Positions 3,333-61,642 of a stretch of 64,000 nucleotides of DNA are shown here, piece after piece (positions within the stretch are counted from its first letter, which is position 1; every line of letters begins with the position of its first letter). The notes under the pieces are model-generated. The model had not been told where the DNA came from. It worked only from the letters and a program-made list of their open reading frames with translations, and did no database searches. Position numbers and translations under genes: made by a program. Origin of the DNA: an uncultured bacterium (lineage in GTDB: Bacteria > Margulisbacteria > WOR-1 > CAZGTC01). The stretch is from contig CAZGTC010000001.1 in the NCBI GenBank assembly GCA_964528395.1, forward strand, positions 30,046-94,045. The letters run 5' to 3'.

Positions 3333-4406
3333 ATGTGGCCTAAATTAATATCGCTTCTTAATAAAATATTTAAGCAATTGCAGCAGGTTGAGCCATTGCC
3401 AAATGAATATGATGTTGTATGGGAAGGGCCGTATTTTATTCCCCAAAAAAAGAAATGGTCCCCTTCGCAATTTTTGTATTATAACGGAATTCTTTATTGT
3501 TCTCTTTTTATTGATTGGGGTACTTATCGTATGGATTGGAAGATAAAAGATAAAAAAATAAATTTTGAAACAGGATCTGGCAGCGGAGGAGATTATTATA
3601 ACAATGAATATCTCTGGGAAAGAGCTTTGACACAGATTTATCAAAGATTAAAAAGCGCTTTGAAGAATCCAGAAAGATATAATCGACACGTAAAACAATA
3701 TTTGCCATTTGCTTGTCAAGAGGGAAAAATTGAGCGCCGTTATACTTGGGATAGAAAAACAAAAAGTATTATTCCTTTTTCAAAAATTCAACACTTAGAA
3801 GATTTGCTAGCTGAAGCAGCTAAGTTGGAATATTTATCTCAAATGACACTTAGAAAATATTTAGAAACTGTTGCTATTACAAAAAATGCAGTGTTTAAAG
3901 GCTTAAAATCTTTATCTCTTGTTGAAAAATACAAGAAGCGAGCAGATACTAGGCATGGAGGCTTGCTTGATCTTCCTATGGATGATGCTGAGGCTTTTAA
4001 AAATTGGTATTGCTCAGGACGTTGGGCAGGATCTCATCCTTGGGAGATTGTTTATGGCCATCCCCATGGGATTATGCTAGCGCCACATCATGATGAAAAA
4101 GGTTGGAAATATATCTTATGGGTGGATTCCCTGGGCTGGTATGATTCGGCTGCTTATATGGCCATTGCTCTTGGAGAGAAGAAAATTTTCTTTGAGTTTC
4201 GCGACTCTCAAGAAATAATATCAGCTTTAAAAGGGGCAGATTTAGTGGAGGTTGGGCCCTTTTTTAGGATGGTTTCGTATGAGGAATTAAAGAGGGAGCG
4301 GCCGGAGGTAATAAAATATATTCAATGGAAACCCCTTTCACAATTTAAACTTATTACTCCAAATCAAAAAGAGCGCTTGCAAAGTATGCTTAAAGGAGTT
4401 TTATGA
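3333..4406 (+). CDS. hypothetical protein
   Basis: 357-aa ORF with ATG start; no family recognised by eye; 4-nt overlap with the next gene. Confidence 0.5.
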   Translation: MWPKLISLLNKIFKQLQQVEPLPNEYDVVWEGPYFIPQKKKWSPSQFLYYNGILYCSLFIDWGTYRMDWKIKDKKINFETGSGSGGDYYNNEYLWERALTQIYQRLKSALKNPERYNRHVKQYLPFACQEGKIERRYTWDRKTKSIIPFSKIQHLEDLLAEAAKLEYLSQMTLRKYLETVAITKNAVFKGLKSLSLVEKYKKRADTRHGGLLDLPMDDAEAFKNWYCSGRWAGSHPWEIVYGHPHGIMLAPHHDEKGWKYILWVDSLGWYDSAAYMAIALGEKKIFFEFRDSQEIISALKGADLVEVGPFFRMVSYEELKRERPEVIKYIQWKPLSQFKLITPNQKERLQSMLKGVL

Positions 4407-4963
4407 ATATTTTAGCTATATTAGGCAGTCCTCGTCGAGGCGGAAATTGTGAAAAGCTGCTGGATCAAGCTATTAAAAGTCAAAAGTCACAAGTTAAAAG
4501 TCACAAGTTAAAAGTCACAAGTTGCAAGAAAATCATTTTAAATGAATTAAATTTTCGGCCGTGCCAAGCGTGTGAAGAGATAAATCAAGACGGCACCTGC
4601 AAGATTCAAGATGATTTCAAGATCATTGAAAAAGCGGTTTTTGAGGCTGACATTATAATTTTGGCTTCACCTATTTATTTTGGTTCAATTTCTGCGCAAA
4701 CAAAAATGATGATTGACCGCTTCCAATGCCTTTGGCGAGCAAAAGAAAAGGGCCAAGTAGTCCCGCCTCTATATCATATAATAATGTTGCGGGATCCCGT
4801 ATGCGGGACAAGGGCCAAGGGCCAAAAAAAAGGATTCTTTATTTGTGTGCAGGCGGGAAATCGGACGGACTTTTTTGATAATGCCAGGGCAATCGTAAAA
4901 AACTTTTTTGCAACTATCGGCGCTTCTTACGAAAAAGAATTATTAGTCCCCAACCGAGAATAA
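4403..4963 (+). CDS. flavodoxin-like NAD(P)H-dependent FMN reductase / iron-sulfur flavoprotein family
   Basis: 186 aa; N-terminal ILGSPRRGGN and ILASPIYFGS flavodoxin-fold signatures; contains an in-frame tandem DNA repeat at ~4483-4530. Confidence 0.65.
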   Translation: MNILAILGSPRRGGNCEKLLDQAIKSQKSQVKSHKLKVTSCKKIILNELNFRPCQACEEINQDGTCKIQDDFKIIEKAVFEADIIILASPIYFGSISAQTKMMIDRFQCLWRAKEKGQVVPPLYHIIMLRDPVCGTRAKGQKKGFFICVQAGNRTDFFDNARAIVKNFFATIGASYEKELLVPNRE

Positions 4964-4977
4964 AGAAACTCTTAAAA

Positions 4978-5150
4978 GCCCTCATCCTAACTTCCCCAAA
5001 CTTGAAAGCTTTCTTTTCTGCAACCTTCTCCCACAGGAGAAGGAATGATTTTTAAACAAAAACTTATTTAGTCCCTCTCCTTTTAGGAGAGGGTTGTTTT
5101 GGAATTAGCTAACACATAAGAGATGTTGGGTGAGGTTTTAGCAGACCCAC
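4978..5150 (+). repeat. MITE-like composite intergenic repeat, copy A
   Basis: Modules ccctcatcct ... ccttctcc-caca-ggagaagg (5024-5043) ... ccctctcc-tttta-ggagaggg (5073-5093) ... gggtgagg (5128-5135); same module order as copies at 20800, 22827 and 61364. Confidence 0.6.
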
Positions 5151-5162
5151 CTAAAAAACTTC

Positions 5163-5190
5163 TTGACAATATTTTTTTGGCAAGTATAAT
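5163..5190 (+). promoter_or_regulatory. sigma70-type promoter upstream of hcp
   Basis: TTGACA (5163-5168), 16-nt spacer, TATAAT (5185-5190); RBS AAGGAGA precedes the ATG at 5234. Confidence 0.55.
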
Positions 5191-5233
5191 AGGTATAGCA
5201 AGTACTTATTATAAATAATTAAAGGAGAAAAAT

Positions 5234-6823
5234 ATGAATATGTTTTGCTTTCAATGCGAACAAGCCGCCAAAGGAAAAGGGTGCGAGATCCAAGGGGTAT
5301 GCGGAAAAAAGCCTGAAGTCGCGGCTCTGCAGGATTTGCTTGTTTATAAATTGCTACGAATTGCTGTCCTTAGCGACAAGTCGCGACTTGTTGCTAGGGA
5401 TAATTTTATAATTGAAGCTCTATTTTCAACTGTAACTAATGTTGATTTTGACCCAAAAAGGCTAAAAAAATATATTGATAAGGCGGATGAAATATTGGAA
5501 ACAAACGCAAGCCTTGAGATTGATGATTTAATCAAACAAGGCCAAGCCATCCAGTCAAAGCTCTTTTTTAATTTAACTGAAAATTCAGACGTTAATAGCT
5601 TAAAAAGCCTGCTTTTATTTGGTTTAAAGGGCATGGCTGCTTATTATGACCATGCTTCAATTTTGGGGCAAAAAGACGAAGCTGTAATATCTTTCTTTTA
5701 TAAAGGGTTAAACGCCTTGGCCGCGGAAAATATTTCAGTAGACGAGCTGATCAGCTTAAATATGGAGTTTGGCCAGGTTAATCTAAAATGCTTGGAGCTT
5801 TTGGACAAGGCAAATACCCAGCATTTTGGGCATCCTGTGCCGACCAAAGTTTCTCTCGGGGTAAAAAAAGGCCTAGCGATTTTGGTTTCTGGCCATGATT
5901 TATTAGATTTAGAAGAACTGTTAAAACAAACCGAAGGCAAAGGCATAAACATTTATACTCACGGAGAAATGCTGCCTGCTCATGGCTACCCAGCCTTAAA
6001 AAAATATAAGCATTTGGCGGGGAATTACGGTGGAGCCTGGCAAGACCAATATAAAGAATTTGCAGCTTTTCCGGGTGCGATTTTAATGACTACTAATTGT
6101 ATCCAAAGGCCCGCGGATTCTTATAAAAATAGGATTTTTACAACTGGGCTGGCGGCTTGGCCGGAAGTTGTACATATTTCAGATCGAGAACCTGGCAAGC
6201 CAAAAGATTTTTCTCCTTTGATTGAGGCAGCCAAAAAAGCTGACGGGTTTGAAAAAGATGAAGAGGGAAAAGAAATAATGGTGGGGTTTGGCCGCAATGC
6301 AGTGATGTCGATAGCAGATGAAATAATAGAGGCAATCGAAGCGGACCAAATCAAACATTTCTTTTTGATCGGCGGATGCGATGGGGCAAAGCCGGGCAGG
6401 AATTATTATACGGAATTTGCGCAATTAGCACCGAAAGATACAGTGGTTTTAACTTTGGCGTGTGGTAAGTACCGCTTTAATAAACTGGATTTTGGCGATA
6501 TTAACGGAATCCCGCGGCTTTTAGATATCGGCCAGTGCAATGATGCTTATTCTGCGATCCAGATTGCCTTGGCCTTAAGCAAAGCTTTTAACATGGGAGT
6601 AAATGAGCTTCCTTTGTCTTTAATTTTATCCTGGTACGAGCAAAAAGCAGTTTGTATTTTACTAACTCTGTTATCTTTGGGAATAAAAAATATAAAGCTT
6701 GGGCCCAGCCTGCCAGCTTTTATCTCTCCCAATGTCTTAAAAGTACTGGTTGAAAAGTTTAATATCGCGCCGGTGAAGACAGCACAGGAGGATTTGAAAG
6801 AGATATTAGAAAAAAAGGGATAA
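5234..6823 (+). CDS. hcp: hydroxylamine reductase / hybrid-cluster protein
   Basis: 529 aa; N-terminal Cys cluster FCFQCEQ...C...GVCGK and conserved GHD, GGCDGA, ACGKYRFN, GQCNDAYS blocks. Confidence 0.9.
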   Translation: MNMFCFQCEQAAKGKGCEIQGVCGKKPEVAALQDLLVYKLLRIAVLSDKSRLVARDNFIIEALFSTVTNVDFDPKRLKKYIDKADEILETNASLEIDDLIKQGQAIQSKLFFNLTENSDVNSLKSLLLFGLKGMAAYYDHASILGQKDEAVISFFYKGLNALAAENISVDELISLNMEFGQVNLKCLELLDKANTQHFGHPVPTKVSLGVKKGLAILVSGHDLLDLEELLKQTEGKGINIYTHGEMLPAHGYPALKKYKHLAGNYGGAWQDQYKEFAAFPGAILMTTNCIQRPADSYKNRIFTTGLAAWPEVVHISDREPGKPKDFSPLIEAAKKADGFEKDEEGKEIMVGFGRNAVMSIADEIIEAIEADQIKHFFLIGGCDGAKPGRNYYTEFAQLAPKDTVVLTLACGKYRFNKLDFGDINGIPRLLDIGQCNDAYSAIQIALALSKAFNMGVNELPLSLILSWYEQKAVCILLTLLSLGIKNIKLGPSLPAFISPNVLKVLVEKFNIAPVKTAQEDLKEILEKKG

Positions 6824-17889: not shown

Positions 17890-18800
17890 GTTTAATAAAA
17901 GACTTAATTATTATTGGGGGAGGGCCGGCGGGAATCACGGCGGCAATCTATGCAGCCCGCAAGCGCTTGAATTTTTGCCTGCTGACGCGGGAAGTGGGGG
18001 GGCAGACTGCTTGGACCAGCAATGTAGAAAATTACACCGGCTACCAAATTATTTCCGGGCCGGATCTGGTGAAAAAATTCTACGACCAGCTAAAAACTTA
18101 TAAAATTGATCTGCGAGAAGGGCAAGAGGTTAAGTCCGTTGGAAAGAATGCTGGTATTTTTACAGTAAAAACTGCAAAAGACGAGGAGCTTCAAACTAAG
18201 ACGATTGTACTGGCTTCGGGCAAATATCCTCGGCGCTTGGGAGTTCCAGGAGAAGCCAAATTTAGCAATAAAGGGGTAGCCATCTGCGCAACTTGCGATG
18301 GCCCGATGTTTGCGGATAAAAATGTGGCGATTATCGGCGGCGGCAATTCCGCCCTGGATGCAGCTTTACAAATGATAAAGATTGCTGCAAAAGTCTATTT
18401 GATTACAGTAAATGATGATTTGAAGGGCGATCCAGTAATGATAGAAAAAGTAAAAACTGCAGAAAATATGGAAATTTTAACCAAAACGAAAACATTGGAA
18501 ATCTTAGGAGATAAGTTTGTTAAAGCCATAAAAATTGAAGAAAAAGGCGGAATTAGAGACTTAGTGGTTGAGGGAATTTTTGTGGAAATTGGCCTTGTGC
18601 CTAATGCGAAATTTATTGATTTTTTGGAAAAAAATGATCAGGGTGAAATTATCGTAAATTGTTTTATGGAAACTTCGGAACCTGGGATTTTTGCAGCTGG
18701 AGATGTTACACAAGTACCGGATAAGCAGATTATTATTGCAGCTGGGGACGGAGCCAAGGCGTGTTTGAGAGCCTTTCGTTACTTGTCAACGCATAGATAA
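17886..18800 (+). CDS. trxB: thioredoxin-disulfide reductase-like FAD/NAD(P) oxidoreductase
   Basis: 304 aa; GGGPAG FAD motif, redox CATCDG, second GGGNSA NAD(P) motif. Confidence 0.75.
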   Translation: MSLIKDLIIIGGGPAGITAAIYAARKRLNFCLLTREVGGQTAWTSNVENYTGYQIISGPDLVKKFYDQLKTYKIDLREGQEVKSVGKNAGIFTVKTAKDEELQTKTIVLASGKYPRRLGVPGEAKFSNKGVAICATCDGPMFADKNVAIIGGGNSALDAALQMIKIAAKVYLITVNDDLKGDPVMIEKVKTAENMEILTKTKTLEILGDKFVKAIKIEEKGGIRDLVVEGIFVEIGLVPNAKFIDFLEKNDQGEIIVNCFMETSEPGIFAAGDVTQVPDKQIIIAAGDGAKACLRAFRYLSTHR

Positions 18801-20799: not shown

Positions 20800-20987
20800 C
20801 CTCACCCAAACCTCACCCTAATCTTTCTTATATGTTAGCGAATTCTAAAACTACCCTCTCCTAAAAGGAGAGGGATTATCTATTTTTCGCTCAAAATTAA
20901 ATCCTTCTCCTGTGGGAGAAGCCTGCCTGCCGGTAGGCAGGGTTGCATGCGAAAAGATTGCTAATAACGAGTAATCAGGATGAGGGT
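20800..20987 (-). repeat. MITE-like composite intergenic repeat, copy B (inverted relative to copy A)
   Basis: cctcaccc ... ccctctcc-taaaa-ggagaggg (20854-20874) ... ccttctcc-tgtggg-agaag (20903-20921) + inserted cctgcctgccggtaggcagg (20922-20941) ... aggatgagg. Confidence 0.6.
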
Positions 20988-21062
20988 TTTTCTATTTTTC
21001 CCTTGAGATTTCTTCGCGTTCTTGTTAAGCTAAGGAAGTTTAAGAAATAAAGGAGATTCTTT

Positions 21063-22769: not shown

Positions 22770-22826
22770 TTTTTATATCAAAGGGAGCTTTGTTTGAAAA
22801 AGGCAAAGCTCTCTTTGTTTTATGAC

Positions 22827-22988
22827 CCTCACCCCTACCCCTCTCCCTCGCTACGCTGGGAGAGGGACATTTTGTTATTCGTTGGGTTATAATATGAAAA
22901 TACAAATTTTAGGAGATCCTTCTCCTGAGGGAGAAGGCGGCATAAGATAAATCTTCAAGTTTGAAGGAGTTAGGATGAGGGCAAATCA
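22827..22988 (-). repeat. MITE-like composite intergenic repeat, copy C; terminus overlaps priA RBS and start codon
   Basis: cctcaccc, ccctctcc-ctcgctacgctg-ggagaggg, ccttctcc-tgag-ggagaagg, then gaaggagttaggATGagggcaaatca; the rc of copy D ends in the same taggatgagggcaaatca. Confidence 0.6.
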
Positions 22989-30673: not shown

Positions 30674-31163
30674 TTTTTTCTACTTTTATTATAATTTCCG
30701 CGCCCGAAACCAAAGTCAAGATGCAAGCCATCCAGAGCAGGGTTGCTGCAAAAACTAAATTCAAAATATATGCGCTAATTGCCAAGACTTGGGAAAAAGT
30801 TTTTAATTTTCCCCAGCTGTCTGCAGCAATTACCCGGTTTTTTCTGCCTTTAGCCATGCGGTATCCGGTTATTAAGATTTCCCGGCCGATAATTAAAAGA
30901 ACCGCGGCGATTGGCGCCTGGCTTTTAAGAATTAAAGCCACAAGGCAGCTAATCACCAGCAATTTATCGGCCAAAGGGTCCAAAAATTTTCCCAAGGAGC
31001 TTTCGCATTTCAGATAGCGGGCTAAAAACCCGTCGAGGATGTCCGAAAGCGCAATGGCCAAAAAAATGGCCAAAGATATGCCAGGATCAAATTTAAATAA
31101 AGAGACGATTAAGAGGGGGATAAAAACAATTCTTAGAATCGTTATGAGATTGGGCAGGTTCAA
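30666..31163 (-). CDS. pgsA: CDP-diacylglycerol--glycerol-3-phosphate 3-phosphatidyltransferase
   Basis: 165 aa; CDP-alcohol phosphatidyltransferase motif DILDGFLAR...DPLADK. Confidence 0.85.
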   Translation of the reverse strand: MNLPNLITILRIVFIPLLIVSLFKFDPGISLAIFLAIALSDILDGFLARYLKCESSLGKFLDPLADKLLVISCLVALILKSQAPIAAVLLIIGREILITGYRMAKGRKNRVIAADSWGKLKTFSQVLAISAYILNLVFAATLLWMACILTLVSGAEIIIKVEKNG

Positions 31164-32473
31164 GTAACCGGTCGGGCGAGAAGGTCATAAGGCAAGGCAG
31201 CTAGAACCTTGGCTTTTATGATTTCTCCTGGGTTTATTTTTTTGCCAGTTATTATAACCGAACCATCGATTTCTGGAGCATCCATATATGACCGGCCCAC
31301 GCTGCCTTTAGGAGTGACTTTATCTATTAAAACTTCGATTATTTTCCCGATCATTTTCTTGTTTTTCTCTTCTGAAACCGATTTTTGTAAACTCATTAAG
31401 GTTCTTAATCTTTTTCTCTTTAATGGAGCTGGAACCTGTCCCCTCATCTTATTTGCCAGCGTGCCAGCTTCTCGAGAATATTCAAAAACACCCAATCTTT
31501 CAAACTTCGTCTCTTTAACAAAATTAAAAAGTTCTTCAAAATCTTTTTGCGTTTCCCCTGGGAACCCGACAATTAAAGAAGTCCGAAGAACTATGCCTGG
31601 TATTTCCCTCCTAATTTTTTGAATGAGCCGGATGAGCTTATTTTTGGGCGTTTTACGGCCCATTTTCGATAAAATGTTATCACATATATGCTGGATTGGC
31701 AAGTCAAGATACTTAACGATTTTCTTCTCTTTTGCCATGATTTTTATCAATTCCGGGGTAATATGTTTGGGGTGGGTGTACATGATGCGGATCCATTTTA
31801 TGGCTGGGATTTGGCAAGTTTTTCGCAGTAATTCAACAAATTTTGGATGCTGGGTCGTGTCTTGGGCAACAAAAATGATTTCTTTTACCCCTTGTTTAGC
31901 TAATTGTTTTACTTCAGCGATGACATCGACTAATGGCCGGCTATGATAATTCCCGCGGATTGAGGGAATTAAACAATAAGAACAGCGGTTATTGCACCCA
32001 TCCGCGATTTTGACATAGGCAGTGTGGGGTGGGGTAAGTTTTAAACGCGGAATATTATGAGAAAATAGTATGGCTCCGGACTTAGCTTGGGATTTAGTAA
32101 TTGGGATTTTATTTGGATTTTGGATTTTGACATTGGGATTTTTTAGGAGGTCTAATATCTGTTCTAATTGATTACACCCTAGCCAAACATCAATTTCTTT
32201 TAGAGGAGGTTTTTTTTCACGCTTGGGCAGGCAGCCGATAACTGCCAAAATTTTACAACAGCCGGTTTTTTTGTATTGGCTGTATTTTTTTATGGTTTGA
32301 ATGGATTCTGCAACCGAAGATTTTAAAAATGCGCAAGTATTGATGAGAATAATTTCTGCGAGCTTAGGATTTGTGGTTAAACTAAAACCATTGGTCAATA
32401 ATATTCCCAAAACTGCTTCAGAATCAGTTAGGTTTTTTGGGCAACCCAGGCTTAAAAGATAGATTAAGTTCAC
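31160..32473 (-). CDS. rimO: ribosomal protein S12 methylthiotransferase
   Basis: 437 aa; SLGCPKNLTDSE, radical-SAM CNNRCSYC, C-terminal TRAM; GTG start overlapping doc stop (GTGA); in-frame repeat-derived segment at ~32095-32160. Confidence 0.8.
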   Translation of the reverse strand: MNLIYLLSLGCPKNLTDSEAVLGILLTNGFSLTTNPKLAEIILINTCAFLKSSVAESIQTIKKYSQYKKTGCCKILAVIGCLPKREKKPPLKEIDVWLGCNQLEQILDLLKNPNVKIQNPNKIPITKSQAKSGAILFSHNIPRLKLTPPHTAYVKIADGCNNRCSYCLIPSIRGNYHSRPLVDVIAEVKQLAKQGVKEIIFVAQDTTQHPKFVELLRKTCQIPAIKWIRIMYTHPKHITPELIKIMAKEKKIVKYLDLPIQHICDNILSKMGRKTPKNKLIRLIQKIRREIPGIVLRTSLIVGFPGETQKDFEELFNFVKETKFERLGVFEYSREAGTLANKMRGQVPAPLKRKRLRTLMSLQKSVSEEKNKKMIGKIIEVLIDKVTPKGSVGRSYMDAPEIDGSVIITGKKINPGEIIKAKVLAALPYDLLARPVT

Positions 32474-36513: not shown

Positions 36514-36644
36514 AGCTTTTTTCCTTCTTTTTTCTTATTTCTTGTTACTTATTTCTTAAATATTGCGAAAGACAAGGGGGACTTATTAAGAAACAAGTAA
36601 TAAGCAATAAGTAGCAAGAAAAATATTGCTTTCGCAATATTTTA

Positions 36645-36716: not shown

Positions 36717-36760
36717 GCAATCCGAGTATTATAACAAAAATTGTGTTAAAATTTCCTTTT

Positions 36761-37687
36761 ATGCTTAATCTAAAAGATAAAATTATTGAACTAAAGAAGA
36801 AAAAAAACGCTGTAATTTTGGCGCATAACTACCAGAATCCAGAGATCCAAGATATTGCGGATTTTACCGGGGATTCTCTCGGTCTTTCGATCAAAGCTTC
36901 TAAAACTAAGGCTGATATTATTTTGTTTTGCGGCGTGCATTTTATGGCAGAAACCGCGGTGCTTGCTTCCCCTTCTAAAAAAGTCATTCTCCCAGATATA
37001 ACTGCCGGATGCCCTATGGCAGATATGATCACCGCAGATGATCTGCGCAAGCTCAAAATCCAAAACCTGCCTGCCGACAGGCACGGTCCAAAATCCAAAG
37101 TAGTTTGCTATGTAAATAGTTCGGCCGAAGTTAAAGCAGAATCTGATATTTGCTGCACCTCGGCCAATTCAGTTGATGTAGTTAATTCGATCAAAGATAC
37201 TGATGAAATAATTTTTGTGCCGGATAAATATTTGGGGATGTATACGCAGAGCAAATGTCCGGATAAAAAATTTATTTTATGGAATGGTTATTGTCCCACC
37301 CACGCTAGAATTTTGCCGGAATATTTAGAAGTAGCAAAGGCCAATCATCCCAAGGCTAAGGTTTTGGTTCATCCGGAATGCCGGCCGGAAGTTATTGCGC
37401 AAGCAGACGAAGTTTTATCCACTGGAGGTATGATAAAATTTGTCCAAAAAGCAGAAGCAAAAGAATTTATTATTGCGACAGAGATCAATATGCTTTATGC
37501 TTTGAAAAAAATTGCCCCGGATAAAATTTTCTATCCAGCCACAGAACTTGCCACTTGTCCGAATATGCGAAAAATTACCCTGGAAAAAGTCATCTGGTCG
37601 CTGGAAGAAGAAAAAACAATTGTTACTGTCCCGCAGGAAATAGCTGTCAGGGCTAAAAGAGCAGTTGACGCAATGCTGAGCATATAA
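36761..37687 (+). CDS. nadA: quinolinate synthase
   Basis: ILAHNYQ, DIADFTGDSL, CPMA, YVNS, CTSAN, HPEC blocks; start set at ATG 36761 (track start is GTG). Confidence 0.85.
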   Translation: MLNLKDKIIELKKKKNAVILAHNYQNPEIQDIADFTGDSLGLSIKASKTKADIILFCGVHFMAETAVLASPSKKVILPDITAGCPMADMITADDLRKLKIQNLPADRHGPKSKVVCYVNSSAEVKAESDICCTSANSVDVVNSIKDTDEIIFVPDKYLGMYTQSKCPDKKFILWNGYCPTHARILPEYLEVAKANHPKAKVLVHPECRPEVIAQADEVLSTGGMIKFVQKAEAKEFIIATEINMLYALKKIAPDKIFYPATELATCPNMRKITLEKVIWSLEEEKTIVTVPQEIAVRAKRAVDAMLSI

Positions 37688-37803
37688 ATCCCAATTAACC
37701 AAATCCAAATATCAAATAAAATCCCAATGACCAATAATCCAATTAGAAATTTGTGAATTGGATGATTTATTTGTCATTTGCTAATTGGGATTTTGGATTT
37801 TTC
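37686..37803. repeat. inverted-repeat element (ggatttt family) filling the nadA / response-regulator convergent spacer; possible bidirectional terminator
   Basis: Left arm aaatcccaattaaccaaatccaaat, right arm attgggattttggattttt; internal hairpin tccaatt-N11-aattgga followed by a T-rich run. Confidence 0.45.
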
Positions 37804-37804
37804 C

Positions 37805-38230
37805 CTAATGTATGTTGCCCGGTCCTTCAGAGGGGGTGCCTTTGGTGGTTTTGCTGCGGCGGCGGCGCAGGGCTCTTTCAACTAATTCGTAAATTTCTTC
37901 CATTAAAAAGGGTTTTCTCAAATATTCCAAAGCACCAAGGGTAATGGCATTGGAGTGGGAAGATTCGGTGGCATAAGCTGTAACAATAACGCATTCAAGG
38001 GAAGGGTCTTTTTGCTTTAAGTTCTTTAAGATTTCGATCCCGTCCATGCCCGGCAATTTAAGGTCAATAAACGCCAGGTCAAATTTGCCGGATTCCAGGG
38101 AGTTTATGGCCGAAGGCCCGTCAGCAAAGGTTTCTACTTCGTAATCTTTTATTTGCAGGATCATTTTAAAGGATTCTAGAACCGAGGGTTCATCATCTAC
38201 TACCATGATTTTGACTTTGTCTTGCGGCAC
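37805..38230 (-). CDS. single-domain response regulator (CheY-like receiver)
   Basis: 141 aa; MVVDDE ... FDLAFIDLKLPGMDG ... receiver signature; GTG start with RBS AGGGAGGG. Confidence 0.8.
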   Translation of the reverse strand: MPQDKVKIMVVDDEPSVLESFKMILQIKDYEVETFADGPSAINSLESGKFDLAFIDLKLPGMDGIEILKNLKQKDPSLECVIVTAYATESSHSNAITLGALEYLRKPFLMEEIYELVERALRRRRSKTTKGTPSEGPGNIH

Positions 38231-38390
38231 GATTTTCCCTCCCTGTGAAGAATTATTCAGCGTTTAAAGTGTAACAGAAAGGCTTTTGCATTGCAATATT
38301 TTTTTGGGTATGATAGTATCTGTTTTCGAGGAAAATAGAGCTATTTTTCCCCCAATTCCTTGTTTTTCAAGCGTTTGCGGGGAAAGTTAT

Positions 38391-38464
38391 GGCTGGGTAG
38401 CTCAGCTGGTTAGAGCAAACGGCTCATACCCGTTGTGTCGGCAGTTCGAATCTGCCCCCAGCCA
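38391..38464 (+). tRNA. tRNA-Met (CAT), elongator type
   Basis: GGCTGGGTAGCTCAGCTGGTTAGAGCAAACGGCTCATACCCGTTGTGTCGGCAGTTCGAATCTGCCCCCAGCCA; canonical arms; G1:C72 paired. Confidence 0.8.
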
Positions 38465-38477
38465 AAAATGAAAAATT

Positions 38478-48143: not shown

Positions 48144-51100
48144 TTAATTTTCTCCTCTAGCCTCGAGTAATCGGTTTATCTCGGCGGATATGTTTAATAT
48201 TGTCTTGATTTCCGATTTTATTTGAGAAGGGATTTTTTCTTCTTTATCATAGGAATAAAGAATGTTTTTAATGGTTAATTCTACATAAAGTTGAGTATCG
48301 ATAACATATGCTGTTAATTTAGGATTTGCTGCAATGTTTCTCACGGCTTCTATTTGAGAATATAAAGCAGAAAGTAAATTTAATATTTTTTCCAGAGTTA
48401 AATTTTGCGGATCTGCCAGATAGGTTAGAGCTTTATTAAGAGATATTTCTGGGTTATCGTTGATTAAATCATTGGTTGTAGTTGGCGGCAGGGGTGGTGG
48501 AGCAAGGGGTTGTGGAGCTGGTTTTGATGCTTCTTCTGCTTGTTTTCTTTCTAATTCTTCTAGTTTTTGTTCTACGCTTGGTAAATTTTTTGATACACCC
48601 CTGTGTGTTTTAAGTATTTTCTGTAGATATTCTAGGGCAATTCGGCAGTTTTTTACCTCATTTGTTTGCGGCAATGTTTCAAGCTGCGTTAAAAAATCTA
48701 TTCGTTTCATCCAAAACGCTGCAGCGGAGAATATAAGGTCGTGCGGAAGATTGGATTCTGCTTCTATGGCTCTCAAGTGTCCGCTCAAAGTTGCCATAGG
48801 GCTGTTTATTAAATCATTTGCTTGTAGCGCTTGAATTCTAATTTTAATTTCTTCAATAGAAGTCGAAGGCAACCTCAAAGATGCTGCTGGAGGTGCTGGA
48901 GTAGGTGCTGGAGGTGGGGTTTTTTCTTGACCCTTGACCCTTGCTACTTGTTTCTCTTGTTTTGCGGATGGAGTTTGTGGTGAGGTGAAGGGTTTTTCTT
49001 TAGGAGGCAGAAAATTGGCGGGTTCTACAAGAGCTGGCGCTGGTGCAGGGGGGGGAGGTGTGTGTAACAAGGAATCAGCAGCAGCATTGATACCTTCTTG
49101 AGAATAGGCTCGACCTGTTTCTCTTGATGAACCAATGAGTTCTTGTAATTTGGCATTAATTCTAGATAAATTATCCATAACGTTTTGTTTATTTTCTTGT
49201 AAATCTGCTTGCTCGGGAGCAATAGAGATAGCTGCTGTTTTGCGATAAATTTTTTCATAAATAGCAGCATATTGATTAGCTGCGTTAATATCGTTGGGAT
49301 TATTGGAATCAAGTGGAGAAATTATAGGCAATAGAAGATTAACTAGCTCTTCTAGTATTTTTATTGAAAGAATATCTTTTCTTTTTTCTCTTGATTCAAA
49401 GAAAGATATGAAGGCTTGGCATATATGGAAAGGAGTTTGGGCTTTTGTTAAATTAATAGTTAATAAAGAAATATCTCTTTTATCTGTTTTTGTTCTTATT
49501 TTATCATCAAAAATGCCAATAACTTCTTGAAGATTTTTAGGGAAATTTGCTCCCAAATGTTCAGTTTTCTTTTCTAATAAAGTATAAATATTTATAAAAA
49601 TTTCTAATGTTTCAAAAGGAGCCGAAGATATTTTTTGGATGGCGATTTTGTATAAGGAAATCGCAAGATTTACTTTTAAATTTTCCGCCAAATCCTCACG
49701 AATAATCCTCTCAATTTCTTCTGGTGCAGCCGCGGCCATGGCCTGCAAATGATGTTTTTCTAAAGTCGCGAGTTTGATTTCACTTCTTTGTCTTAATCCT
49801 TCATATTGATTTTTTATTGATTCTGGAGCGCGGTCAAATTTCCCCCATACAAAAACTGCGGCTTCGGTTATTTGTCCTGCGGCGCGGGCTTGTTCATGGG
49901 GGAAGGCGCGGTCAAAAGCCTTCGAATACTCCCCGACAATAGCCTCGATCCAGGCGGGGTTATAGGATAAGAGCTGGTAAGAAATATTTTGGAGGTCTTC
50001 AAGAGTTTTTGCTAAATCAATGGAATGAGGATTGCTAAATATGTTTTGATTGAATTGGGCAGAAAAATTTTGTAATTGCTCTCTTTCTTTTTTTCTTGTT
50101 TCTTCAACAAAAGCGTCTAATTCCTCTATATTTTGTGGAATCTGTAGATTGCTTTCCTCTTGATTTGATTGTTTTAAATCTAATAGTCTTTTAACCCCAG
50201 TATTACTTTGATTGGCATGTTGCCGGGCATATTGCAAGGTGCCTTTTTTTGGGCTGATAAGTCCGGGAAAAGCTGCTTCCAGCGCTTGTACGTCTTCTCT
50301 TGAAGGGACATATTGAGAGGCACATAAAAAATCAAGCAAGGCAGGAGTTCCCAAGCGAAAGATCCCTTCGCAATCGAGGAACATCAATTGTAAAGCGCGG
50401 GTTTTTAATGCTATCGCAGTTTCTCCTTGTAAATCTAATGCTGCCAATATGAGGCCGAACAATTCGATGTTTTTGCATTTAATAATAGCTAAAGTGGCAT
50501 TATAAATTAAGTCTTTTTGCGCAGGACTTAGGTTTTCTTCTTGCGCCAGGATAGAAACCGCACGAGGGAATTCAATGGCAACATCGGTTACGTCAATGCC
50601 GTTTTTTAGGGGCTGTAAATTATTTTTTATTTCTTTTTCATTTTTTCCATCTGCCTCAAGCCCTTCAATGATCTGCAACTGGCGCAGGGCTATATATAGA
50701 GGTTTTTTAGCTAAGTCTTGATAAACTATTTTTACTATGGCATTTAAAGAGTTTAATTTTTGGTCGTTAAATAGGTTGAATAGTAAGTGGTGTAATCCTG
50801 CGTAAGACTGGTCAACATCCTCTTCTATTTTAGTTTCTTTGGCATTAGCTAAGCGCAATAAAAAAAATAGTTCAAAAAGCTCGTTCATCTGCTGAAAACA
50901 TGTATTTTGGTCTAAAGGATTTAGCGAGTTTTGGATTTTAAAAGCCTCTCTTAAGGCAATATGTTTTAGCGTGATTACCTGGTTGTCTGCAGTATCCATG
51001 ATTATTTCTTTATGTTCAAAAATTTGCGTAACATATAAGCAGTTCATGGCAGTTTTGTAGAAGAGCAATGAAATATCCCTTAATTCTTTTTTGGATGGGA

Positions 51101-52796: not shown

Positions 52797-53006
52797 AAAA
52801 CAATTTCCTCCTATAAAAATTAATTAAAAATTTCCAATTTCAAATGACAAACAAGGAAGAATAATTAATATTAATACATTGTTTGACATTTTTAATTGCC
52901 TGCCTGCCGGCAAGGCAGGGTCATTTGTCATTATACTTGTATCGGCAAAACAATGGCAAGATTTCAGTTTGGGGAAAATATTTTATGAGGGTTGGGCGTT
53001 TTTATG

Positions 53007-53034
53007 TTGACTCTTATATTGTAAATGATATAAT
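53007..53034 (+). promoter_or_regulatory. sigma70-type promoter upstream of the AbiEi-like/Fic pair
   Basis: TTGACT (53007-53012), 16-nt spacer, TATAAT (53029-53034); gene start at 53085. Confidence 0.5.
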
Positions 53035-53084
53035 CTATCCATAATGTTTACGAATAAACTATCTAAAATATTTACGGATAAAAT

Positions 53085-53759
53085 ATGACAACAATTAATG
53101 AAAAAGCCCATATTTTTTGGCAAAAACATGCAGACGAAGGGAAAATAGTTTTAACTAAAGAAGATTTTCCAAATGAATACATCCGGCGATTTTTAATTAA
53201 AAAAAGCTTTTTGTACCGGTTGCGCAGGAATTTGTATATCCTTAAAAACCCTTTAGATAGCCTAGAAGACATCATATATAAGAATTACTGGCAAATTGCT
53301 GCAACTGTTTTAAAAAGATATTATCCTTGGTCGATTGAGAAAGAAAATGCCCTAAGTTTATGGGCCGGCAGCCAAAGCATCCCAAATTTGCTAAAAGTAA
53401 GGACTGCCAAAATAATTAAAAATAAGATTAAGCTCCCTTTTCATATTAATATATCTGTTCGCCCAGATAAAATGTTTAAAAAAGAAACATCGGGCGAAAT
53501 AAAAATTAATAATTCCCGCATATTCTTGGATCTCCCAGAAAAAATAATCTTTGAAGCAAAAAATTTAGAAGACCCTAATTTAAAAGCTTTAATCAAAGGG
53601 CATAAATTTAATAAATTGCTTTTGGAGGCCCTTTATTCAAAAAAACCCAAGCCTATTGTGGCTAAAAGGCTTATTAAATTAGCAAAAGAACTAGGACAAA
53701 ATGATCTGCAGGAAGCATTAGAAAAAATAGCAAAAGAATATACTTACTATCGATTTTAG
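53085..53759 (+). CDS. hypothetical protein, possibly AbiEi-like antitoxin-domain protein
   Basis: 224 aa; N-terminal GKIVLTKEDF...YRLRRNLYIL resembles AbiEi-type wHTH; directly upstream of Fic gene. Confidence 0.4.
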   Translation: MTTINEKAHIFWQKHADEGKIVLTKEDFPNEYIRRFLIKKSFLYRLRRNLYILKNPLDSLEDIIYKNYWQIAATVLKRYYPWSIEKENALSLWAGSQSIPNLLKVRTAKIIKNKIKLPFHINISVRPDKMFKKETSGEIKINNSRIFLDLPEKIIFEAKNLEDPNLKALIKGHKFNKLLLEALYSKKPKPIVAKRLIKLAKELGQNDLQEALEKIAKEYTYYRF

Positions 53760-55666: not shown

Positions 55667-55765
55667 AAAAATGTCCGAATTTCCTAAATCCAAACAAGGA
55701 TTTTTATTTATAATAATTTTACATTGTTCGGATTTTAGGATTTTAGGACTTTAGGACTTTATTTT

Positions 55766-61362: not shown

Positions 61363-61363
61363 C

Positions 61364-61538
61364 TGATTTGCCCTCATCCTAGCTACTTTAAATTTGAGAA
61401 TTATTCTTATGCAACCTTCTCCCTCAGGAGAAGGATATAATTTTATGCGAAGATCAATTAACCCCTCTCCCAGTGTAACGCGGGAGAGGGTAGCATGAGA
61501 ACAGTAGGCATCTTAGAAAAATTTGGGTGAGGGTGAGG
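61364..61538 (+). repeat. MITE-like composite intergenic repeat, copy D
   Basis: tgatttgccctcatcct ... ccttctcc-ctca-ggagaagg ... ccctctcc-cagtgtaacgcg-ggagaggg ... gggtgagggtgagg. Confidence 0.6.
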
Positions 61539-61642
61539 TTTTTTCCAACACCCATGTTGAAAATTCCCTCATAAATTTATATATCGCCTAAGAGGCGATA
61601 CTACGCGAAGAGGCTGCCGGCGAAATTGCAGTAAGCTTGAGC

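Follow-up and report, generated by a model that had tools for sequence, protein, structure and literature searches.

In-frame heptamer repeats and a 21-nt palindrome in the rimO and nadA genes of an uncultured Margulisbacterium

We analysed a 64,000-nt stretch of DNA, here called the window, from an uncultured WOR-1 bacterium of the Margulisbacteria (contig CAZGTC010000001.1, positions 30,046 to 94,045), in which two kinds of small repeat lie in frame inside rimO and nadA, the genes for ribosomal protein S12 methylthiotransferase and quinolinate synthase. The window has a G+C content of 39.7%, 7.2% of it is non-coding, and the closest named homologs of its RimO, NadA and MetW proteins all belong to Candidatus Margulisbacteria, Saganbacteria or WOR-1. 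The rimO open reading frame (ORF) matches the TIGR01125 equivalog (436.8 bits, residues 4-432) and contains the Pfam domains UPF0004 (residues 4-93), Radical_SAM (residues 155-319) and TRAM_2 (residues 375-436). The public gene call for nadA (P0121, 308 aa) starts at codon 7 and is 100% identical to the window protein. The coordinates of the features are given in Table 1.

The repeat DNA of rimO is located in the linker that joins the UPF0004 domain to the radical-SAM domain. The original prediction, made from the letters of the window alone, had claimed that such DNA lies inside the coding region and encodes a linker, and this is borne out: taattgggattttatttggattttggattttgacattgggatttttt is located at 32098-32145 within a full-length gene, and the repeat DNA gives the peptide KNPNVKIQNPNKIPITKS, residues 111-128 of RimO. 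The units follow the order GGGATTT-AGTAATT-GGGATTTT-ATTTGGA-TTTTGGA-TTTTGAC-ATTGGGATTT. Tandem Repeats Finder (TRF) detects period 7 at 32112-32129 (2.6 copies, 100%), and the segment as a whole is degenerate, staying under the 75% threshold for period 7. Its likeness to related elements spans ~32086-32145, wider than the core repeat codons, and it is equivalent to one arm of the palindromic elements found in spacers. Being G-poor, the segment is predicted to stay unfolded as sense RNA (0 kcal/mol). In the AlphaFold model of RimO, the predicted local distance difference test (pLDDT) score is 90.8 overall, 59 for the block 111-120 and below 50 for residues 119-132; the sole low-pLDDT part of the model, which is predicted to be disordered, thus coincides with the repeat peptide and the residues next to it.

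The ortholog alignment indicates that the rimO segment is lineage-specific. RimO homologs range from 391 to 479 aa in length, and nearly all of this variation falls in the linker between the N-terminal and radical-SAM domains. Specifically, the close relative on contig L001 (protein P0002) has an unrelated linker, 10 residues shorter than that of the window and with no proto-repeat at the site, while the relative on contig L002 (protein P0003) has another heptamer array at the same site, (CAAGATA)n(ATTACAA)n, with an 8-nt-period array a few codons upstream. The rimO flanks align well among the close relatives at the DNA level, whereas the linkers do not, so that one RimO site has a different sequence in each of the window, L001 and L002, two of the three being heptamer arrays. 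In farther orthologs the linker is short or missing, and many have no linker insert. Additionally, a distant Margulisbacterial RimO (P0047/L123) carries two in-frame arrays, namely (CCCCGTT/CCCCAGT)n in the linker (~1881-1919, giving SPRSSVPVPQSPSQ) and (AAATCCC)n in another loop (~L123 1753-1809, giving FQIPNPNFQTNHKSQIPN). We also observed a ~40-aa insert, VEPATESRHKVGTGCRGSKSPASGTAKFIRRFP, in the same linker of the Margulisbacterial RimO homolog P0107 (alignment A1, columns 180-215).

In nadA, a GC-rich palindrome interrupts an (AAAATCC)n array, the whole arrangement aaaatccaaaa-cctgcctgccgacaggcacgg-tccaaaatccaaa spanning 37055-37099. The peptide LPADRHG encoded by the palindrome is a gap in 15 of 15 aligned NadA homologs, including the 82%-identical protein of the close relative L003 (P0122/L003), and comparison with the L003 nadA DNA gives a clean 21-nt indel at 37067-37087. 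The 15 homologs read K-x-x-[HN]-P-K-[AS]-K where the window reads K-I-Q-N-LPADRHG-P-K-S-K, and the array flanks occupy ancestral codon positions with no added length. With the hairpin excised, the flanks read AAAATCC AAAACCC AAAATCC AAA, which is (AAAATCC)3.4 at 23 of 24 positions; L003 matches at 17/24, and contiguous 24-mers on both strands of the window reach at most 21. The flanking of the hairpin by the repeat is therefore statistically real. The hairpin itself (-12.5 kcal/mol, z = -3.7) differs at a single position from the consensus of a dispersed 21-mer family. The AlphaFold model of NadA has a pLDDT of 94.7 overall and of 69 for the block 101-110, a loop between the helix 92-101 and the strand 113-117, and the LPADRHG insertion lies in this sole low-confidence loop of the predicted structure. 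In the best reading, an ancestral loop already rich in Lys codons turned into a near-perfect array, which the palindrome subsequently divided in two. On the minus strand (37065-37099), the palindrome followed by TTTTGGATTTT scores as intrinsic-terminator-like, antisense to nadA.

These alignments support the proposal in the original prediction that both the RimO and the NadA segments are lineage-specific. Its description of the nadA feature as a mini-hairpin flanked by the same repeat holds for the flanks, which add no length, whereas the inserted DNA belongs to a separate palindrome family. It had further proposed that repeat-derived DNA is tolerated in frame in essential genes; both segments are indeed in frame, and only the word essential is too strong, since E. 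coli can do without rimO and the essentiality of nadA is conditional. It is accurate to call both conserved housekeeping genes.

Next, we considered the relation of the rimO segment to the spacer elements of the window. Its best in-window match is 37683-37734, in the spacer element that follows nadA, to which 52 nt of rimO (32094-32145) are 75% complementary according to a repeat finder. The local-alignment score of this pair is 29, compared with 16.6 +/- 1.4 and a maximum of 20.5 for 60 dinucleotide shuffles of the query. The pattern ATTGGGATTT-N15-30-ATTGGGATTT occurs in the window only in the rimO segment and in 37683-37734, with 0 occurrences expected. The signature that the prediction had extended to three spacer elements thus stands for 37686-37803, and the links to 42055-42115 and 55677-55750 are weak. 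Identity of the rimO segment with either of these two was rejected, since the similarity is within the shuffle range (score 16.5 for 55677-55750), and they are therefore not counted as the element of rimO. The element at 55677-55750 is a related but separate one with an 8-nt period, and 42077-42112 matches 37765-37800, the right arm of the nadA-proximal element, at 83% over 36 nt; the elements at 55677 and 42055 belong only loosely to the repeat family of rimO.

Table 1 Features of the window and of related contigs (window coordinates unless a contig is named).
Feature	Position	Strand	Description
rimO (ribosomal protein S12 methylthiotransferase)	31160-32473	-	437 aa, intact, full-length
Heptamer-periodic segment in the RimO interdomain linker	32090-32140	-	51 nt, in frame, encodes NPNVKIQNPNKIPITKS
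RimO linker, window			LEQIL/LKEIL to G-A: DLLKNPNVKIQNPNKIPITKSQAKS
RimO linker, P0002/L001			86% identical to window: ETLNKDHRIQAIGKS
RimO linker, P0003/L002			83% identical to window: SVLTRYKKQDTRNKQITNYKLQITHP
nadA (quinolinate synthase)	36743-37687	+	PF02445, E = 6e-120; NF006878, 405.9 bits
Left flank in nadA	37055-37066	+	AAAATCCAAAAC (KIQN), half of split (AAAATCC)n array
GC-rich palindromic mini-element in nadA	37067-37087	+	CTGCCTGCCGACAGGCACGGT, 21 nt, in frame, encodes LPADRHG
Right flank in nadA	37088-37099	+	CCAAAATCCAAA (PKSK), other half of split (AAAATCC)n array
Spacer element, convergent nadA/response-regulator gene	37686-37803	.	Long imperfect palindrome
Solo arm related to right arm of 37686-37803	42053-42115	+	ATTTATTTGTCATT..TTAATTGGGATTTGG, directly upstream of gene start
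Palindromic spacer element	55667-55765	+	8-nt-period GGATTTTA/GGACTTTA arrays; -22.1 kcal/mol, z = -3.1
In-frame array (AAAAGTCACAAGTT)x3.4	4471-4528	+	Flavoprotein-like ORF, peptide KSQKSQVKSHKLKVTS
In-frame heptamer array	48925-48956	-	Pro/Ala-rich linker of 1124-aa ORF, peptide KQEKQVARVKGQEK
Palindrome copy, intergenic	20922-20942	+	CCTGCCTGCCGGTAGGCAGGG
Palindrome, 22-nt variant, intergenic	52899-52920	+	CCTGCCTGCCGGCAAGGCAGGG, between TTGACAT and TTTGTCATT repeat units
Palindrome copies in L003	L003 6366 and 1979		Copy at 6366 has the same CGACA loop as the nadA copy

Heptamer arrays are a general feature of the window. A period scan found seven arrays at period 7 and seven at period 14, with none in local shuffles; period 8 gave three, periods 10, 12, 15 and 16 one or two each, and periods 4-6, 9, 11 and 13 none. 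Five of the seven period-7 arrays fall in the non-coding 7.2% of the window, and the two coding ones are both in frame. TRF reports period 7 also at 18800, 30088, 34693 and 36525. The units include GGATTTT, GGGATTT, TTGACAT, TTGGTCA, AAGTTAT, AATAAGN and others; GGATTTT is a common 7-mer (44 + 18 occurrences), and TGGTCAT-like units are found only in the spacer arm at 37730. Spacers with two inverted arrays (37683-37806, 36514-36640 and 55667-55765) form long imperfect hairpins with z of -2.6 to -3.6. Among these, the element at 37686-37803 is comprised of AAATCC(C)/GGGATTT, TGACCA and TTTGTCA units and has RNA folds of -27 and -31.5 kcal/mol (z = -2.6 and -3.0). This 118-nt element is absent after nadA in L003, where the two convergent genes overlap. 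The in-frame array at 48925-48956 is 74% complementary to the spacer array 36589-36623, and for the flavoprotein-like ORF with the array at 4471-4528, a PDB sequence search gave no alignment of the N-terminal region. In Rfam, the only matches in the window were two tRNAs, and none concerned the repeat elements.

The contents of spacers differ between relatives. The cinA-recA spacer carries an (AAGTTAT)n array in the window, an element of the 55667 type in L002 and a plain hairpin in L001. The 55667-type element of ~100 nt (aaaaatgtccgaat.tcctaaatccaaacaagga...ttttacattgtt.gga.tttagga) is located at 55667-55765 in the window and at 5162-5280 in L002, which are non-orthologous sites in close relatives, and mobility is therefore implied. 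These comparisons show that spacer repeats turn over fast between relatives. The copy at 55667-55765 extends right to an ATG that lacks an obvious Shine-Dalgarno sequence. A 24-nt tandem repeat unrelated to the heptamers, ATAAACTATCCAAAATATTTACGA, lies at 53030-53086 in 2.4 copies, directly upstream of the gene at 53085.

Array-like DNA was also observed in metW. At 2154-2186, GGATTTT-like DNA with an array match of 20/24 encodes the conserved MetW motif FPNFGLWILRFGFLL. The length of the motif is conserved, while several of its residues (such as I in WIL versus W[KR][LIV]) depart from 14 of 14 aligned homologs towards the translation of the array; this conserved hydrophobic motif scores 24 against the rimO segment. 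MetW 2154-2186 was considered as an insertion and rejected, as it is a conserved motif at conserved length. These features hint at near-periodic coding DNA that is pulled towards the repeat, which may be termed heptamerisation.

The palindrome forms a family separate from the heptamer arrays, with the GC-rich 21-nt consensus CCTGCCTGCCG-NN-AGGCAGG. It occurs in more than 120 environmental contigs, in at least 129 copies, and for 30 of the 129 listed copies the surrounding sequence is free of stops over at least 600 nt, which makes these stretches candidate ORFs. One further copy, cgcctgcctgccggcaggcaggcacg, is located upstream of rimO in the distant, GC-richer Margulisbacterium L123 (1328-1353). 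In the environmental contig L198 (~3553-3650), a copy stands immediately before sequence encoding ...FVVMPNHVHGIV..., which we take to be a motif typical of Y1 transposases of the IS200/IS605 type, similar to REP-associated tyrosine transposases (RAYT). This putative Y1 motif beside the palindrome is a possible clue to the mobiliser.

We also observed palindromes within a tRNA gene of L003. The tRNA-Met that is intact in the window (38390-38465) appears broken up in the orthologous region of L003 (1552-2380), where an insert of ~150 nt, bounded by cctgcccgcc...ggcaggcgggg, follows the D-loop. The insert contains a complete second tRNA-Met (1846-1921; ARAGORN; 70.9 bits in Rfam). The 21-nt palindrome cctgcctgccggtaggcaggg occupies the variable-loop position, another hairpin, tccgccataggcgga, is found in the T-loop, and the outer tRNA-Met escapes detection. 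Additionally, four spacers of the window (4964-5233, 20810-21062, 22770-22974 and 61363-61636) have a common composite repeat with arms of 43-73 nt and 77-90% identity, comprising GC-rich mini-hairpins (ccttctcc-loop-ggagaagg, ccctctcc-loop-ggagaggg, gggtgaggg and others). A CCTGCCTGCC palindrome is present in one of these spacers as well. This composite is a cluster family resembling repetitive extragenic palindromes (REP) and bacterial interspersed mosaic elements (BIME).

The rimO arm has counterparts in other phyla. A scan for the double ATTGGGATTT pattern in one genome per GTDB species gave at least 124 matches at 119 or more loci, counts that do not represent frequencies. Among the 124 listed matches, at least 45 are clearly of array type, with TTGGGAT, TTGGTCA, TTGGTAG, TTGACAT, TTGGAAA and similar units. 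The listed array-type matches come from at least 15 phylum-level groups, including at least 14 in Omnitrophota, 6 in ANME-1/Methanophagales, 5 in Patescibacteria and 4 in Planctomycetota, and at least 21 have inverted units upstream. Among the listed matches, nearly identical G/T-rich arms were seen in Omnitrophota, Patescibacteria, ANME-1 and the archaeal Thermoplasmata, and the arm was also seen in Woesearchaeota, likewise Archaea. The arms of ANME-1 and Omnitrophota are 82% identical over 68 nt with a common unit order, and the rimO segment of the window matches both at 73-74% over 66 nt; in these alignments of low-complexity sequences from contigs of metagenome-assembled genomes (MAGs), 20 positions are fixed by the search pattern. 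The match extends to the left flank TTGGGATTTAGTA/GGAA, which the pattern does not force. The G/T-rich arm and its A/C-rich complement build spacer palindromes beside ordinary housekeeping genes. Specifically, the neighbours are HdrA2-like, VhuD-like and MfnE genes in Archaea, and rpoD, dnaJ, purD, a ferritin gene and a Sua5/YrdC-domain gene in Bacteria, all lineage-typical and mutually unrelated. In nine arm-carrying loci from other phyla, no Rfam family was found.

Tentatively, the rimO segment may be a copy of a specific, ordered G/T-rich arm of ~65 nt, TTGGGATTTGGAAATTGGGATTTAYTTGG(GTAGTATT)GGTAGTATTTGANATTGGGATTT, which would represent an undescribed class of mobile or templated elements across both domains; we hold this to be doubtful rather than probable, and treat the cross-phylum arm as a lead, not a census. 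If it is true, and reflects common descent or horizontal spread instead of convergence, the heptanucleotide repeats of Cyanobacteria, known as short tandemly repeated repetitive (STRR) sequences, would be the known tip of a cross-domain class, and the arm would repeatedly have supplied proteins with new disordered segments. If the sharing of unit order holds, the origin of STRR-like repeats, unexplained since 1990, would become open to comparative analysis, for instance of co-occurring protein families and of whether the repeats are mobile, templated or convergent.

Among known repeat systems, the STRRs resemble the arrays described here in several respects. They have a 7-nt unit in head-to-tail order, are mostly intergenic (as are five of seven arrays here), often stand beside start or stop codons, sometimes form inverted arrays, turn over rapidly among relatives, and occasionally occur inside ORFs at tolerant positions. 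However, they are hosted by heterocystous Cyanobacteria and consist of one perfect unit (CCCCAGT, TTGGTCA or CAACAGT), whereas mixed ordered units (GGGATTT, GGATTTT, TTGACAT, TTGGTAG and others) are found here, and the ordered arm occurs in both Archaea and Bacteria among the listed matches. TTGGTCA-type units appear in the cross-phylum matches, and the CCCCAGT type, which resembles cyanobacterial STRR1, only in rimO of L123. Strict membership in the STRRs thus fails because of host and unit sequences. Margulisbacteria are the sister group of Cyanobacteria. Long simple-sequence repeats of heptanucleotides are treated for bacteria generally by Mrazek 2007 (as relayed in PMC4679880 and PMC4692102), TAACTGA repeats by MacGregor 2015 (PMC4679880) and G-rich GGGAATC/GGGGAYT repeats by Rehm 2015 (PMC4692102). 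The in-ORF copies of MacGregor mainly affect hypothetical ORFs or the ends of proteins (PMC4679880), whereas those described here lie in internal linkers of conserved enzymes. For the units GGGATTT, AAATCCC, TTGGTCA and TTGGGAT, a full-text literature search gave no paper on a prokaryotic repeat.

The closest functional analogue is the insertion of Rickettsia palindromic elements (RPE) into housekeeping genes; these elements are in frame in unrelated genes, at positions compatible with the fold, and add a peptide (PMC10969869). In contrast to the segments of 21 nt and ~51 nt described here, RPEs are ~100-150 bp long, encode a conserved peptide, are confined to Rickettsia and have no sequence relationship to them; the rimO segment, additionally, is a single arm without a fold. 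REPs and BIMEs, mobilised by RAYT, resemble the palindrome in being short, GC-rich, imperfect, intergenic and often clustered with other hairpins. They differ in the GTAG-type head, which is absent here, and in a species-specific consensus, where the palindrome has a perfect 20-mer common to many unrelated contigs. No RAYT gene was seen in the window, for which no systematic search was made. The element at 37686-37803 has some features of miniature inverted-repeat transposable elements (MITE), namely inverted arms and an empty site in L003, although its TAA-only flanks are too short as a duplication and it has no known parent insertion sequence; the rimO and nadA segments, unlike MITEs, are without inverted termini.

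Small dispersed repeats (SDR) of Nostocaceae, reportedly described by Elhai et al. 2008 (Genome Res 18:1484) as families SDR1-8 of 21-27 nt, resemble the palindrome in size (~21 nt), in the capacity to form a hairpin, in presence or absence between relatives, and in landing in repeats and genes. They differ in sequence and, according to PMC5861425, are not found outside Nostocaceae, unlike the palindrome with its spread over environmental contigs. The tandem repeats of Borgs are rapidly evolving and independently arising, and add disordered segments to proteins (PMC9879509); the outcome, new disordered protein regions, is the same here. However, with the 7-nt unit found here the frame is kept only at particular copy numbers or lengths, and the arrays are degenerate. 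The in-gene units of Borgs are said to be perfect and multiples of three.

We consider it likely, with a probability of about 0.7, that two kinds of small repeat, STRR-like heptamer arrays and the 21-nt palindrome, landed in frame in conserved enzymes by copying or slippage and by palindrome insertion, followed by a selection filter. Given the observed lineage-specificity, repeat-family membership, location in low-confidence loops, presence or absence among relatives and recurrence in other RimO genes, the route of the DNA into rimO and nadA may be pictured as follows. Heptamer arrays normally fill spacers, often as two inverted arms that give a long imperfect hairpin. In rimO, one arm of such an element, ~51-60 nt, would have replaced ~15 nt of ancestral linker by non-homologous copying. 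In nadA, slippage or a homogenisation akin to gene conversion would have turned an 8-codon repeat-like loop into a nearly perfect (AAAATCC)3.4 array, and the palindrome would then have landed in the middle of the array by a REP- or SDR-like route, adding seven codons. The MetW array, like that of nadA, would reflect slippage or homogenisation of a proto-repeat in place. Selection would retain an event only where it lies in a loop, keeps the frame, contains no stop and encodes polar residues. In both rimO and nadA, the length has changed by a net multiple of three, and the sense strand in both genes is the A/C-rich one, which is stop-free in all frames and gives polar K/N/P/Q/I/S/T peptides; (AAAATCC)n reads K-I-Q-N-P-K-S, while its complement would read G-F-W-I-L-D-F. 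The proteins would survive because of these three properties, namely disordered or surface-loop sites, lengths in multiples of three and a stop-free A/C-rich sense strand.

Several points weigh against this reading. There is no near-identical pair of donor and recipient, the best in-window match of rimO being 75% over 52 nt, and copying is thus not proven against growth in place. The TAA on both sides of the spacer element at 37686-37803 is too short for a target-site duplication, and no mobilising enzyme was identified. The array analyses cover the 64-kb window of the genome, and changes are polarised by three close relatives, L001, L002 and L003. Only one of the 129 listed environmental copies of the palindrome (L203) has heptamer-array flanks; a general pairing of palindrome and array was rejected on this count, and the nadA arrangement is therefore not a standard composite element. 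The segments would be neutral passengers rather than adaptations, and this neutrality is assumed. Finally, the antisense nadA hairpin with its T-rich array resembles an intrinsic terminator, and a role at the nucleic-acid level is possible.

For rimO, the chief alternative is that the segment arose entirely in place. It would have grown by slippage and homogenisation of a chance 7-nt proto-repeat, and its likeness to spacer elements would reflect only a shared mutational bias towards the same units. We regard this as possible though not probable. It would fit the nadA flanks, which were altered without length change and already match at 17/24 in L003, the array-like DNA of MetW 2154-2186 (20/24) at conserved length, and the tendency of each locus and relative to its own unit type; heptamer over-representation is ascribed to polymerase slippage in the literature (Mrazek 2007, as relayed in PMC4679880 and PMC4692102). 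However, the rimO segment is an ordered series of different units, which argues against simple slippage, the order is common to the 37683-37734 arm and arms in other phyla, and the relative L001 has no proto-repeat at the site. A functional origin, either as tuning of the RimO linker and NadA loop or as a cis element (antisense terminator, protein-binding array or translational pause) retained by selection, is unlikely. Close relatives have unrelated sequences at the RimO site and many orthologs lack an insert altogether, which suggests tolerance rather than need and disfavours adaptive roles, even though the one linker was struck independently in at least three genomes. For Beggiatoaceae, it has been suggested that regulators bind to heptamer arrays directly in front of start codons (PMC4679880), yet the promoter scan of the rimO segment gave nothing above background (36 sites in the region versus 25 +/- 5 expected). 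Likewise, the hairpin followed by TTTTGGATTTT faces the convergent gene, but lies ~720 nt inside nadA, far from the end of that gene.

Chance resemblance, in which a Lys/Asn/Pro-rich linker of an AT-rich genome mimics the repeat and the nadA palindrome is a coincidence, is very improbable and largely refuted by the score of 29 against a shuffle maximum of 20.5 and by the double ATTGGGATTT pattern, found twice with 0 expected. The nadA 21-mer, one mismatch from a dispersed family, and its flanks, with a 23/24 match unique in the window, point in the same direction, and the segments are exactly the parts that are absent from close orthologs. This holds despite the abundance of GGATTTT in the window and the MetW score of 24, which demonstrates that coding DNA can mimic the repeat. 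Still less credible is an artefact of assembly or binning, in which an assembler spliced low-complexity repeats into the genes. The source is a MAG, and repeats are a classic cause of mis-joins; however, both ORFs are in frame with all catalytic motifs aligned, an identical NadA is found on 2 contigs, and the NCBI, ENA and Logan assemblies contain 4 contigs with an identical 437-aa RimO, among them one of 1.6 kb from ENA and others of 0.2-1 Mb. An artefact of a single assembler therefore does not account for the segments.

In-frame repeats of the spacer type in conserved enzymes are a known phenomenon, observed here in a lineage where it is undescribed so far. These data indicate that non-triplet (7-nt) repeat DNA can join conserved enzymes as disordered polar linkers, repeatedly at one RimO site, and that repeat DNA, whether selfish or prone to slippage, can give rise to new parts of proteins. 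For annotation, K/N/P/Q-rich loops or inserts of the LPADRHG/PAGRQA type in MAG proteins may be repeat DNA rather than enzyme biology. The occurrence of one ordered heptamer arm across bacterial phyla and Archaea among the listed matches is an unexpected lead. Together, the in-frame heptamers offer a concrete example, and one that can be dated, of how streamlined uncultured bacteria gain new peptide segments.

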